Assembly: GCF_044324875.1 (NCBI RefSeq)
Contig: NZ_CP172185.1
Reading direction: 5' to 3' (one strand)
Source of the DNA: Escherichia coli
GTDB taxonomy: Bacteria; Pseudomonadota; Gammaproteobacteria; Enterobacterales; Enterobacteriaceae
DNA: 64,000 bases
Program-made: the position numbers
Shown: in pieces, positions 55,601-61,600 of the stretch
How the letters are laid out: the number at the start of each line of letters is the position of its first letter
Position numbering within the stretch: the first letter of the stretch is position 1

Positions 55601-58600
55601 CGGCGTACGCATCCGCTTGCAGCACACCGCTGAAGCAAGCAAGATGAGTCTGCGGATGGATGCCTTTTCTGTCCGGGCTGTAAGCGAACCACACTGCAGG
55701 TGCCAACGCTGACCCGGCATTGCGGTCATCACGAACATACGCCCACAACCGCCCGGTCTTCGTCTTCTTATTACCCGGCATCAGTACCTGGACCGGGGTA
55801 TCATCGGCATGGAGTTTGCCGTCAGTCATGACATAGCCATGAAGCGCCTCTTCCAGCGGAGACAGCAGCCGGCAGCATGCATCCACCCAGCCCGACAGCA
55901 GTGAACGGCTCAGCTCCACACCTTGCCGGCCGTATATTTCTGACTGGCGATACAGCGGGGTGTGCTCTGCATACTTCGAGGTCAGCACGCGGGCCAGCAG
56001 CCCCGGTCCGGCGATACCCCGCTCGATGGGCCGCGAAGGTGCAGGTGCCTGCACGATGGCATCGCACTGAGTACAGGCATGTTTTTCCCGTACCGTCCGG
56101 ATAACCCGGAAGGCGCTACGCATCAACTCCAGCTGTTCGGCGGTATCCTCGCCCAGATAGCTCAGTGAACCGCCGCAGTTCGGGCAGCACGGCGCCGCAG
56201 GCAACAGTCGCTTTTCGTCACGGGGTAGTGATTCAGGGAACGGCTTACGGATGCGGGTCTGACGCAACGGACGCTGTACTGCCGGGTCATACACCCTACC
56301 AGTCAGCGTATCGCTCTCTTTCTGAAGCCGGTTCAGATCGGCTTCCATTTGTGCGATACGGCGGGAGACTTTTTCGGAACGACTGCCGAAGTTCATCCGG
56401 CGGAGTTTATCCAGCTGCGCCTGCAGATGGTCTATTTCGCGCTCCCGGTTGCTCAGCTTTTCCTGCAGGGCGTGGATCAGCGCTTCCTGTTCGGCCAGGC
56501 GCTGTTTCAGCAGGAAGATGTCGTCAGAAGAGATGTCGTTCATAAGCCCGTATTTTACCGGGCTTATTCTGTGACAACCAGGATAAAGAGATTTACAGCA
56601 TGGTCAGGGAGGTCAGCAGCCGCTTAGGCTGTCGCCAGTCGATACCTTCCAGCAGCATCGCCAGCTGCGCCTGTGTAAGGAACACTTTGCCATCACGGGC
56701 TGACGGCCAGGCGAAGCGCCCACGCTCCAGCCGTTTGGTCAGGAGGCACAGTCCGTCACCGGTGGACCACAGCAGTTTAACCTGACTGCCGCTGCGGCCC
56801 CGGAAAATGAAAACATGGCCGGACATGGGATCGTCTTTCAGCGCCGTCTGTACTTTCGCAGCCAGGCCGTTGAAGCCATTTCTCATATCGGTGATACCGG
56901 CAACCAGCCAAATTTTGGTCCCGGAAGGTAAAGGGATCATCGCTTCAGTTCCTGTATCAGCAGAGTCAGGAGCTTTTCGCTGACATTGCCATTGAAGCGG
57001 AGCGTCCCGTGCCGGAACGTTACCTCACAGCTGATACTGAGGGTTTCCGGGTCCTCTGCGAGCGATTCTGGCTGTTCGGCAGCTGCATCGAGAGTCACAG
57101 GAAGTAGCTGGGGGCTCTCTGAAGAAGGTAATAGCAGCTTTCCCTCGCGCCATTGTTGTCGCCATTTGAACAACAGATTGGCGTTAATGCCATTTTCAAG
57201 AGCAAGTTTTGAGATGGATATCCCGGGTTCACAGGAGGCAGCAACGAGCTGCTGTTTAAATTCGGGAGGATAATTAGGGCAGCCTTTTCGCCTGCCGGGA
57301 GTCACATTTTTCTGCATATCTGACACTTTGGTTCCCACTACTTATTTGGTGGACACCACTTTGTCTAATTCGTCAGATTCTGACCAGACGGTTCAGGCTG
57401 TACGCTTACGATGAAGGATGGATCCCTGTAAAATCAGCAATCTGCGACAAATTACATGTTGAAACAATGGCTGCATTCTCTTCCAAGGCGCGAAACAAAG
57501 TTGCCTTATTACATTTTTCCGGATCGATCGACAGGTTTAGAAATGAAGGAGCCGCGTGGTACCAACTTTTGAAACGCATCCTGTCAGAGAATATCGGCAT
57601 CACTCCCCATGCTCCTGCTGGTACACGGGAAGCCATTTCCTCCAGTAGTGTATAAGTATCGACTCCCAGACTGCAAAATCGCATCGTGTTCGATCGCCGA
57701 TTCGCATCGCATCCCCTTACCCACAAGTTGAAATAGTAGTATTGTATTGATAAATCATAAATTTTTATGGAGGGGTTATGGATAACTGGATTACTCAGGA
57801 ATTCAAATCGCTGGATACAGGGTAAGCGGCTCGCCAGAACCGTATTGATATTTACTGAGAGGTCAGATCAACTTTCCAGGGCAACAGATCGCGTACCCGG
57901 TTTGCCGGCCAGTCCTGGATATGCTCAATAACGTAACGCAGCCATTTTTCTGGCTCCACATTGTTCAGACGGCATGTGCCGATCAGTGAGTACAACACCG
58001 CCGCATGTTCGCCACCGCTGTCGGAACCCGCGAAGAGCCAGTTTTTCCGGCCTACGGCCACTCCCCGTAAGGCGTTCTCTGCGATGTTGTTGTCGATTTC
58101 CGCCTGACCATTATGCAGTACACGTTCAGCGCATCCCACTGTTTCGGCAGGCATGCGAACGCTTTTACTGTATCCGGGTGACGCGACAGTGTTTTCATCT
58201 GTTGCTGTATCCAGTCATACTACGCCAGCATCATTGGTAGCACCTGGGCTTTTTTTGCCGCAGGCGCTGGTTCGCAGACTACTAAAATAATACGCGGTTT
58301 TTCATTTTACGGACGGGCAGCCAGAAGACACAGTTGAAATGCCACATTATACGATTCCTCAAAGGATTTTAGAGGTAGAAACTCAAATATGGAGTGAAAA
58401 TTATGTGCGCCAGTAAAAAAATTAGGCGTCAAAATTCCTCTGGCTGACAGAACTGCACCATCAGTTCCACCACGCATTGGTATCGGTTTTGGTGTAATTC
58501 CCAGCATATTCATGGACTCAAAGAGTAGATCTACAGCACGTCTGTCTTTGTTTAAAGCATTACTAATATTGCTGTAGATATCAGTGATCGTGAACTCAAC

Positions 58601-61600
58601 CCTGGCTGTCGGATATCGGGAAGATATTTTATGTGCAACAGCAGCAATCTGTTGTTTTCTGCGAGTAAAACTGGATTGATCAAAATCACGTATACTTGCC
58701 TGTAACACAGCATTACTTTGTCCGGCATTCATACCATTGAACCAGATATAACCTTCACGACCAGCGGTATTCTCCGGTGTTTCAAGGCGATCAAATTCAT
58801 TTATGTAATCACAGGCCATCAGTAATGGATTAACTAATACATTTTTTGCAGACATCGGATGTGCCGTTACACCAGTAAAACGGATCTCTGCAGATGCAGC
58901 GTTAAAGTTTTCATAAACAATCTCTCCTGACTCGCAACAGTCAATTGTCCAGGCAAAGTCAACAGAAAAACGTTGTAAATCAAGAGACTTAGCTCCACGC
59001 AAGCCTGTTTCCTCATCAGGGACAAATGCAACCACAATATCACCATGCTGATGTTCTGAGGTCAGATTCTCCAGCATAGTCATCACTACCGAAACAGCGG
59101 CTTTATTATCAGCCCCTAGTACACTTGTTCCGTCGCTGAAAATAATGTCTTCCCCCCGATATTTCAGAATTTCGGGATGCTCTTTGACCCGCAGCCAGAT
59201 ATCTTTTTCTGCATTGAGACACAAATCTTCACCTGTAAATTTCAAAATTTGTGGATGAATATCCGGAGATAAACCAACATCTACTGTATCAATATGAGTA
59301 ATGAAACCAATTCGAGGCGCACCCGGAATATTACCTTTTTTCACCGCGGTGACCGTTGCATGCTCATCAACAATAATATCGTCCATATCCAGCAACGCCA
59401 GTTCATCTGCAAGTGTCCGGGCCATCTCATACTGTCCTTGTGTGGACGGAAGGGATGCTGAATTTGGGTCACTCTGGCTACTGATTGAAAGGTAGCGAAA
59501 GAAACGTTGGATTAATTGACTGCTTAATGGGGAGTACATAACTTTTCCTTCTTTTTTTGTGTTATGAGGTGAATGCAATACGCATTTAATGTTATTTATT
59601 AATCTGTAACCGATGCGGATTCATCACTCCATATTGTCAAAGAAAACAGGAAAAGTCATGGTAAGAAGATTAGCGACTATTGCACCGTTACTGGTTGCGT
59701 TGGGTGTAAGCTCAACTGTTTATGCAAAGACACTGGTTTACTGCTCTGAAGGCTCACCTGAGAGTTTTAATCCTCAGCTTTATACTTCGGGGACCAGTGT
59801 TGATGCAAGTGCTGTTCCGGTGTATAACCGACTGGTTGATTTTAAGGTGGGCACTACTGTGCTGGTTCCCAGCCTGGCTGAACGATGGGAAATCAGTGGT
59901 GACGGGAAAGCATATACTTTTTATCTGCGTAAAGGCGTTAAATTTCACAGTAATAAATACTTTACTCCAACGCGAGAGTTTAATGCTGATGATGTTATTT
60001 TTTCATTTATGCGCCAGAAGGATCCTGGTCATCCATATCACCAGGTTTCTGGTGGAACGTATTCTAATTTTGAAAGTCTGGAATTCAGTTCACTCATAAC
60101 CAGTATCGACAGAGTTGATGATCATACAGTTCGCTTTAATCTTTCACATCCGGAGGCTCCCTTTATTGCTGATTTAGCCTGGTATTTTGCTTCTGTTTTA
60201 TCCGCTGAATATGCTGATGCTATGCTTAAAGCCGGAACACCTGAACGGGTTGATATGAATCCAATTGGGACAGGGCCATATCAACTCAAACAATATCAGA
60301 AAGATTCGCGTATTTTATTTACGGCTTTTGATGATTACTGGGAGGGGAAAGCAAAACTGGAACGCATTGTTTTCAGTATCACACCAGATTCCTCAGTGCG
60401 TCTGGCTAAACTGGAGAAAAATGAGTGTCAGGTGATGCCGTTTCCTAATCCATCAGATCTTTCCAGAATCAAAAAAAATCCGGCTCTTAAATTGATGAGT
60501 AAAGCCGGACTTAATACAGGTTTTCTTGCTTTCAATACGCAAAAAGCTCCTCTGGATAATGTAAAAGTTCGTCAGGCACTGGCAACAGCAATTAATAAAA
60601 ATGCCATTATAGATGCTGTATTTCAGGGGACTGGTAGTGCTGCTAAAAATCTGCTGCCACCAGGAGTATGGAGTGCAGACAGTGAATTGAAAGATTATGA
60701 ATATGATCCAGAAAAAGCCAGATCATTGCTAAAAGAAGCTGGTTTTGATAATGGAATGACTATTGATCTTTGGGCGATGCCAGTTCAACGCCCTTATAAC
60801 CCAAACGCTAAACGAATGGCCGAAATGATTCAGGCTGACTGGGCAAAAGTGGGAGTAAAAACAAACATTATCACTTTTGAATGGGGGGAATATCTTAATC
60901 GTATAAAGAACGGAGAGCATCAGGCTGCGTTGATGGGATGGACAACCGCAACAGGTGATCCTGATAATTTTTTTGGTCCACTCTTTACCTGCACTTCTGC
61001 TAACGGTGGTTCTAATTCCGCGAAGTGGTGCTACAAACCTTTCGATGAAATTATTTCTCAGGCTAAAGTAATAACTGATCAGGAAAAACGAGCAGTGCTC
61101 TATAAAAAAGCACAACAGATGATGCATGAACAAATACCAGCGGTGATGATTGCACATTCCACCATTTTTGAACCAATACGCAGTGAAGTCACAGGTTATG
61201 AAATAGATCCATTTGGTAAACATATTTTTTATCAGGTTGATATAAAATAACAGGTGTAAGCTCCGTCTGTGACGTCTGGTGATAGTTGTCCAGTCTGGTA
61301 ACAATAGCGTCCATCTATACAGATGGACGCGAATGATGAATTTTCAGACAACAAGATATTGATGGTTTTCGTTTTTATCTGCCCGACGCATTACGTCTAA
61401 TATTCGAAGAACAATTATCTGTCTGGTTAATCGCTCATCAGTCAGGGCTAAGTCATTTCACCATCACGATTTCTTTTAACGATTACCCGAATGAGCAAAG
61501 TGAGGATGATGCCATGACGCAGGTCAGAGCGACCAGCACCGCGACAATTAATAAAACAGGAAGGCTGCGCGTTTCAGACAGTGATGTCAACATAAACTAT

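Follow-up and report, generated by a model that had tools for sequence, protein, structure and literature searches.

The divergent gene pair

The window analysed here is a whole stretch of 64,000 nucleotides of Escherichia coli DNA (NCBI RefSeq assembly GCF_044324875.1, contig NZ_CP172185.1). Between 58307 and 61250 it holds two intact genes that are transcribed divergently, a paralogue of the peptidase T gene, here called pepT2, and a paralogue of the gene for the binding protein DppA, here called dppA2. An original prediction, made from the sequence alone, had placed a peptidase T-like gene and a DppA/OppA-family gene at these coordinates on either side of a shared region of about 120 bp, had seen no transporter membrane or ATPase genes in the window and had noted insertion sequences (IS) at the flanks. 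This layout was borne out in full: both genes are intact, the spacer measures 118 bp, IS66 and IS21-family elements lie on the two sides, and a tblastn search with E. coli K-12 DppB, DppC, DppD and DppF over the whole window gave no match at E ≤ 1e-3. The start codons of both genes follow from the lengths of their orthologues and from how RefSeq annotates an E. coli locus that is 99.8% identical. The pair and its internal features are as follows.

58307-59539, minus strand: pepT2, a cytoplasmic M20B metallopeptidase and peptidase T paralogue of 410 amino acids, start ATG at 59539, no signal peptide
59540-59657, no strand: divergent intergenic region of 118 bp with both ribosome-binding sites; both promoters are presumed to lie here
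59658-61250, plus strand: dppA2, a periplasmic family-5 solute-binding protein and DppA paralogue (the Thr-Ala-Thr or "TAT" clade) of 530 amino acids, start ATG at 59658
59658-59726, plus strand: Sec signal peptide of dppA2, MVRRLATIAPLLVALGVSSTVYA followed by KTLVYC, read from the sequence; no lipobox
60789-60791, plus strand: Arg codon equivalent to DppA Arg355, the carboxylate anchor, kept (from the translation)
60945-60953, plus strand: Thr-Ala-Thr codons in place of DppA Gly407-Asp408-Asn409 (from the translation)

A DppA scaffold with a replaced peptide anchor

The product of dppA2 matches the Pfam family SBP_bac_5 (PF00496) with 365 bits. Its best NCBIfam model is the DppA equivalog NF043070, which it reaches with 882.4 bits, under the cut-off of 1005, and the models for SapA, GsiB, OppA and NikA match far more weakly. 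All 506 residues of mature E. coli DppA (1DPP) align with dppA2 without a single gap, the mature start of dppA2 falling on residue 1 of the crystallised mature protein, and 328 of 507 mature residues are identical (65%). For comparison, the DppA proteins of E. coli and Yersinia pestis are 86% identical, and the nearest DppA paralogue within K-12, SapA, is just 36% identical (PMC8097410). Because dppA2 stands at 65% from DppA where the E. coli and Yersinia pestis proteins stand at 86%, the dppA2 clade is, as judged from these distances, an old DppA paralogue that would predate the split of Escherichia and Yersinia.

In DppA, Asp408 (Asp436 of the precursor) is salt-bridged to the bound peptide's amino terminus and Arg355 (Arg383) holds its carboxylate (PMC12136057, PMC3295651, PMC12728205). 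A double mutant of DppA in which the two charges were exchanged, R383D+D436R, bound no dipeptide (PMC12136057). The surrounding Gly-Asp-Asn motif is kept from E. coli DppA to DppA1-5 of Pseudomonas aeruginosa (PMC12728205). In dppA2 this motif reads Thr-Ala-Thr, and the replacement is fixed in the clade: position 408 is Ala in 71 of 71 clade sequences extracted from the surveyed loci (Thr-Ala-Thr in 70, Thr-Ala-Asn in one), and Thr-Ala-Thr is present in 119 of the 120 best database matches. Arg355 is invariant in the same 71 sequences, and 252 invariant columns are kept. At 51 positions the clade differs from both DppA sequences, most densely at residues 401-420. The absence of the Asp408 anchor for the amino terminus is, by our reading of these alignments, the most informative feature of the locus, and it was missed by the original prediction. 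The protein is a binder on a DppA scaffold whose pocket has been rebuilt at its amino-terminal end, and for which the label of an ordinary dipeptide-binding protein would be wrong.

Compared with E. coli DppA (PDB 1DPP, 1DPE, 8Z1Y), dppA2 is thus alike in fold, length, ungapped alignment, identity of about 65%, Sec signal peptide and Arg355, but differs in the Thr-Ala-Thr motif, the 51 clade-specific substitutions and the score below the equivalog cut-off. In addition, E. coli DppA is encoded by the first gene of the dppABCDF operon, whereas dppA2 is not encoded together with dppBCDF. The points of likeness would also fit a redundant second dipeptide binder, that is a DppA isoform in which the exchange of Asp408 for Ala is tolerated, and a single D408A mutant of DppA is unreported in the literature consulted on DppA. 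Such a redundant isoform is nevertheless improbable. The replacement is fixed throughout the clade, the discriminating positions are concentrated around the altered motif, and Gly-Asp-Asn is kept in true dipeptide and tripeptide binders as far as Pseudomonas. Furthermore, the score lies under the DppA cut-off, and ordinary dipeptides need no dedicated peptidase partner.

The peptidase retains all catalytic residues of PepT

The second member of the pair matches the NCBIfam peptidase T model PRK13381 with 667 bits (cut-off 293), PRK05469 with 467 bits (cut-off 255) and TIGR01882 with 322 bits (cut-off 286). It has the M20 catalytic domain (Pfam PF01546) with an inserted dimerisation domain, M20_dimer (PF07687). 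Along its full length the protein shares 37% identity with Salmonella PepT, and another PepT of solved structure (3IFE) is equally similar to it as the enteric enzyme. In an alignment to 1FNO (Salmonella numbering), His78, Asp80, Asp140, Glu173, Glu174, Asp196, His223 and His379 are all kept, among them the metal ligands His78, Asp140, Glu174, Asp196 and His379 and the general base Glu173. The core motifs PDEE and NFH occur in 120 of 120 relatives. The GADDK motif of PepT reads GADNK in the same 120 family members, corresponding to an exchange of Asp141 for Asn. The exchange was considered as a second hint of a substrate with an uncharged amino terminus, but this was dropped since the second Asp of the GADDK-type motif is conserved in M20 enzymes irrespective of the type of substrate.

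In relation to PepT of Salmonella and E. coli (M20B; PDB 1FNO, 1VIX), pepT2 is therefore alike in its two-domain M20 architecture, metal ligands, catalytic Glu and scores above the NCBIfam cut-offs, but it is only 37% identical, has GADNK instead of GADDK, and is encoded beside a DppA paralogue instead of alone. The retained residues suggest that pepT2 most likely is an active cytoplasmic M20B aminopeptidase. Given the 37% identity to the characterised enzyme, its specificity may differ from the cleavage of tripeptides at the amino terminus that is typical of PepT.

The pair is conserved without a transporter of its own

An ortholog survey with the peptidase as query and one genome per species yielded 80 loci, from genera and groups that include Enterobacter, the Klebsiella oxytoca group, Raoultella, Kosakonia, Buttiauxella, Cedecea, Serratia, Pluralibacter, Lelliottia and Siccibacter. 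In 78 of the 80 species loci a divergent and adjacent binder orthologue, 74-85% identical to dppA2, accompanies the peptidase; the two exceptions are a locus at a contig edge and that of Raoultella ornithinolytica. With the binder as the starting point, the divergent arrangement was again found in Kosakonia sacchari, Salmonella enterica, Dickeya zeae and Serratia fonticola, with unrelated neighbours in each. Across 77 species, the genes flanking the pair form 17 clusters at one end and 18 at the other; the pair is found in at least 17 distinct surroundings. The adjacency in 78 of 80 species loci argues that the pairing has not arisen by chance, and because the two genes stay together while their surroundings change, a functional link between pepT2 and the binder is indicated.

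No homologue of DppB or DppC was found within 10 kb of the pair in the 78 species loci, nor was a DppB/C-type permease gene found in four further genomes (8-10 kb flanks) or in eight E. coli contexts of the same island. DppD/F-like ATPase matches near the pair were limited to a fused ATPase about 5 kb away in Serratia sp. DD3 (locus L051) and two weak ATP-binding cassette (ABC) matches of 27-32% in the loci L075 and L082. The Serratia matches were rejected as a cognate transporter, as the fused ATPase is GsiA-like and transcribed away from the pair. An open reading frame (ORF) of 530 amino acids that adjoins the binder in that locus is unrelated to the binder and shows an ABC-ATPase-like signature in the alignment. 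Since the binder never occurs with a permease of its own, it is best regarded as a true orphan, one of two possibilities that the original prediction had named. From this genomic pattern, the pair is taken to be a copy of a functionally linked and complete two-gene module that Enterobacterales have conserved. No description of this binder clade or of its pairing with a peptidase was found in the literature, of which the searchable part is incomplete.

The other possibility that had been named was a fragment of a larger peptide-uptake island, that is a broken remnant of a dpp/opp-type operon from which insertion sequences had taken the permease and ATPase genes. The surroundings in the window lend themselves to such a reading, because the segment is flanked by IS66 and IS21 elements, the island breaks off at 62792 with the third IS21 copy, and the window ends inside that element. 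On the other hand, both genes are of full length, the pair stands alone in the 78 species loci, the four further genomes and the eight E. coli contexts, and the ATPase-like matches are just unrelated or weak. In E. coli relatives the island continues beyond this point with genes for a BON-domain protein, a YebF-like protein and an outer membrane protein, not with dpp or opp genes. The remnant reading is largely refuted by these observations and is highly improbable.

The spacer has a conserved core

In most of the 78 orthologous loci the spacer is 84-155 bp long. An alignment of more than 70 orthologous spacers revealed a core that is conserved across genera and is a candidate for a shared operator or promoter:

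59562-59599, no strand: conserved spacer core with the consensus TTATCAGGTGTTTGCAA ... TTTAATGTTATTTATG

A sigma-70 promoter scan gave nothing in the spacer between pepT2 and the binder gene. Comparison of the core by eye with the consensus sites of FNR, CRP, sigma-54, Fur, Zur and the Mar box gave partial and unconvincing matches, and no regulator is claimed.

A possible import-and-cleave module

The probable reading of the pair, which we hold with modest confidence, is that of an import-and-cleave module in which the binder feeds the DppBCDF transporter and PepT2 cleaves the cargo. The binder would be exported by its Sec signal peptide and capture a small peptide-like ligand in the periplasm. 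Arg355 would still hold the carboxylate of the ligand, and its amino-terminal end would not be held by Asp408, which is Ala within Thr-Ala-Thr. Because this usual anchor is replaced, the ligand is presumably not an ordinary dipeptide; it could have an uncharged, modified or displaced amino terminus, or extra length at that end. The loaded binder would then dock on the housekeeping DppBCDF encoded elsewhere in the chromosome, and cytoplasmic PepT2 would hydrolyse the imported compound. We infer docking on DppBCDF as the most likely route because no transporter genes accompany the binder and its identity to DppA is about 65%. Of 5426 complete E. coli genomes, 5421 contain the dppBCDF genes, the genome of the window itself being visible for 64 kb only. 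A further point in favour is that transport persists after loss of the DppB scoop residues that partner Arg383 and Asp436 (PMC12136057).

Borrowing of DppBCDF by a second binder has precedents in GbpA/HbpA of Haemophilus (PMC3295651) and in MppA of E. coli, which works with Opp and Dpp (PMC8097410). The best functional precedent is GbpA/HbpA of Haemophilus influenzae and other Pasteurellaceae, a glutathione-binding orphan paralogue of DppA that primes DppBCDF in trans (PMC3295651). Unlike dppA2, GbpA keeps the anchor Asp432, is found only in Pasteurellaceae and is often a lipoprotein; it is also farther from dppA2, with a match score of 587 bits as against 817 bits for DppA. No peptidase gene beside it is mentioned in the literature consulted. 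The column of Asp432, which corresponds to DppA Asp408 and was the only GbpA signature residue compared, is Ala in dppA2 and thus unmatched. MppA, the murein-tripeptide-binding OppA paralogue of E. coli, resembles dppA2 as an orphan family-5 binder and hands a special peptide to a housekeeping translocator (PMC8097410), but it is derived from OppA, matches dppA2 weakly (83 bits) and is not paired with a peptidase T gene. In P. aeruginosa, DppA1-A5 provide several binders with distinct ligand profiles for one common DppBCDF (PMC4206461, PMC12728205); all five keep Gly-Asp-Asn, unlike dppA2 (PMC12728205). The HbpA2 clade of Pasteurellaceae (PDB 3TPA) is, like dppA2, a close relative of DppA without the Asp408 anchor and without a known ligand (PMC3295651). 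However, it has Arg and not Ala in the column of Asp408, and it forms a different clade that is confined to Pasteurellaceae; the match of dppA2 to 3TPA, at 540 bits, is weaker than that to DppA. Taken together, the locus is, as far as these comparisons reach, an orphan family-5 binder like GbpA and MppA, but one derived from DppA by replacement of the anchor and fixed beside its own PepT paralogue.

Glutathione import was considered as a specific claim, given the nearby glutaredoxin-like ORF described below and the GbpA precedent, and was rejected as the anchor Asp of GbpA is missing in dppA2. The glutaredoxin-like ORF was likewise set aside as support, its Pfam match being below threshold and a tblastx search having given no match in the 80 native loci.

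Cross-talk between family-5 binders and non-cognate translocators is documented, as MppA serves Opp as well as Dpp, and SapA may turn to a different permease (PMC8097410). This leads to the question whether the binder works through some further ABC translocator in place of DppBCDF, such as Opp, Sap, Gsi or Ddp. A different translocator is quite unlikely, because dppA2 and DppA are 65% identical whereas DppA and the other family-5 binders of K-12 share at most 36%, and dppA2 scores far lower against the models for SapA, GsiB, OppA and NikA.

Several observations weigh against an import-and-cleave module. R. ornithinolytica (L009, 1-5716) has PepT2 without an adjacent binder, its upstream 4.5 kb being occupied by other, small ORFs on the same strand, although R. 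planticola and R. terrigena retain the pair. Some E. coli copies are decaying, with an IS1 in the spacer in one (L090, 9184-9880) and a frameshifted binder split into three ORFs in another (L093, 8288-9882). Because of this exception and these decaying copies, the partnership is not obligatory, and selection for it in E. coli may be weak. Among the representatives of the 150 nearest clusters (50% identity) of the wider family, about one quarter of those in which the anchor column is occupied carry a residue other than Asp or Glu, so that anchor loss alone is a weak pointer to a particular ligand; it is a route to new specificity that has been taken repeatedly and not just once. The HbpA2 clade of Pasteurellaceae, which also lacks the Asp, bound none of the ligands tested (PMC3295651). 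Loss of Asp408 further removes one of two salt bridges to the scoop loop of DppB (PMC12136057). Finally, the sigma-70 scan and the comparison with consensus sites by eye identified no regulator site in the spacer.

The absence of the anchor Asp, together with the failure of HbpA2 to bind any tested transport ligand, would also fit a role of the binder outside transport. It could serve in the periplasm as a sensor or as a ligand of chemoreceptors, work as a chaperone, or bind a non-peptide such as haem, and its adjacency to the peptidase would then reflect shared regulation only. Solute-binding proteins with a signalling role are known. For DppA itself, service in chemotaxis and binding of haem are established (PMC3295651). 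A non-transport role is, however, unlikely. That the binder stays tightly paired with a cytoplasmic peptidase in different families and contexts finds its simplest explanation in a path of the substrate from periplasm to cytoplasm, and Arg355 is retained along with the 252 invariant columns, including the ungapped DppA scaffold.

Within the import-and-cleave reading, a more specific and tentative proposal is that the pair is a dedicated salvage route via DppBCDF for small peptides that DppA cannot hold, widening the substrate range of the pump. It is possible, but rather doubtful at present. Candidate substrates of such a route would be compounds resembling tripeptides whose amino terminus is uncharged, acylated, cyclised or shifted, or else a natural product that mimics a peptide.

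Origin and distribution in E. coli

The pair is rare in E. coli and present in one of 5426 complete genomes, that of the chicken isolate ECCNB12-2. The exact peptidase sequence recurs in several hundred draft assemblies and sequencing runs. In a search of the plasmid database PLSDB only the IS21 part was matched, and the pair was found on no PLSDB plasmid. In E. coli relatives the pair lies within mosaic islands, several of which adjoin a gene for a tyrosine-recombinase integrase of the phage type. The order of the island block is pepT2, binder, 1.1 kb of non-coding DNA, an ORF of 83 amino acids, and then the BON-domain, YebF-like and outer-membrane-protein genes; no ABC transporter components were found near the pair in these E. 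coli island contexts. The window segment 58044-62792 is 98.65% identical to the ECCNB12-2 island (L001) over 4749 bp, after which the IS21 copy intervenes.

The GC content of the two window genes is 41-42%, and that of their third codon positions (GC3) is 30-34%. By comparison, 78 orthologues have a mean GC content of 53-55% with a minimum of 44%, and a GC3 of at least 39% in every one, with a mean of about 64%. The closest orthologues are just 83-85% identical to the window copy. The pair is of foreign origin in E. coli: by composition and context, the window copy is horizontally acquired and carried on a mosaic island. The low GC and GC3 values and the distance to the closest orthologues place the donor outside the sampled species, in what would be an unsampled low-GC member of Enterobacterales.

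Flanking insertion sequences and neighbouring features

The features around the pair are as follows.

55005-57338, no strand: complete IS66
57822-58170, no strand: IS66 remnant left of pepT2
58044-62792, no strand: low-GC segment (GC about 41%) that the E. coli ECCNB12-2 island also has, overlapping the IS66 remnant at the left end (58044-58170) and bounded on the right by the IS21 copy
61307-61330, no strand: GC-rich hairpin 3' of the stop codon of the binding-protein gene, a possible terminator (terminator-like scan)

Three IS21-family copies with istA and istB lie at 605-3123, 29134-31651 and 62792-64000, the third of which continues past the end of the window. They are mutually 100% identical, which suggests that they have moved very recently. 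The copies could drive rearrangement of the intervening 28-kb and 33-kb segments. One C-terminal IS66 remnant occurs twice, at the left edge of the pepT2 segment (57822-58170) and adjoining the first IS21 copy (258-607), and the two are 94.6% identical; because the same remnant is found at both sites, the neighbourhood of the IS66 end and IS21 is evidently duplicated within the window. Between the complete IS66 and the IS66 remnant lies an ORF of 106 amino acids (57406-57726, minus strand) without a Pfam match.

A sugar-utilisation cluster at 50220-54276 adjoins the IS66. It comprises EIIA, EIIB and EIIC of a phosphotransferase system (PTS) of the galactitol/ascorbate type, a PfkB-family kinase and a class II aldolase, and it also accompanies the pepT2/binder pair in several E. 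coli islands (L087, L089 and L092). On the other side, the stretch 61251-62349 (about 1.1 kb) holds no ORF of at least 60 amino acids and has no Rfam match; a scan of 57000-64000 against Rfam (E ≤ 0.1) gave zero matches in all. The stretch is about 97% conserved relative to the E. coli ECCNB12-2 island, and none of the pair's native contexts in 80 other species contains it. It is followed by the ORF of 83 amino acids (62350-62601, minus strand), which RefSeq labels as glutaredoxin domain-containing. Its Pfam match reaches 17 bits, below the cut-off of 22.9, and it has CPSVH, not CPYC.

Implications

For the window, the results describe a complete small module on a mosaic island, not a broken transporter. 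If the salvage route were true, the low-GC copy in few, often poultry-associated, E. coli strains would represent a niche-specific nutritional gain. The invariant switch from Gly-Asp-Asn to Thr-Ala-Thr offers a simple sequence marker, with which databases need not call such proteins plain dipeptide binders. If the proposed mechanism holds, many Enterobacterales, among them Enterobacter, the Klebsiella oxytoca group, Raoultella, Kosakonia, Serratia, Dickeya and some Salmonella, would possess a second, uncharacterised way into the Dpp pump that comes with a hydrolase of its own. This would be relevant to peptide nutrition and to how peptide-mimetic antibiotics are taken up via Dpp, and it would illustrate how the ligand specificity of family-5 binders shifts through few residues. 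The current understanding is not overturned by these results; for transport specialists they provide a testable lead to a Dpp substrate.

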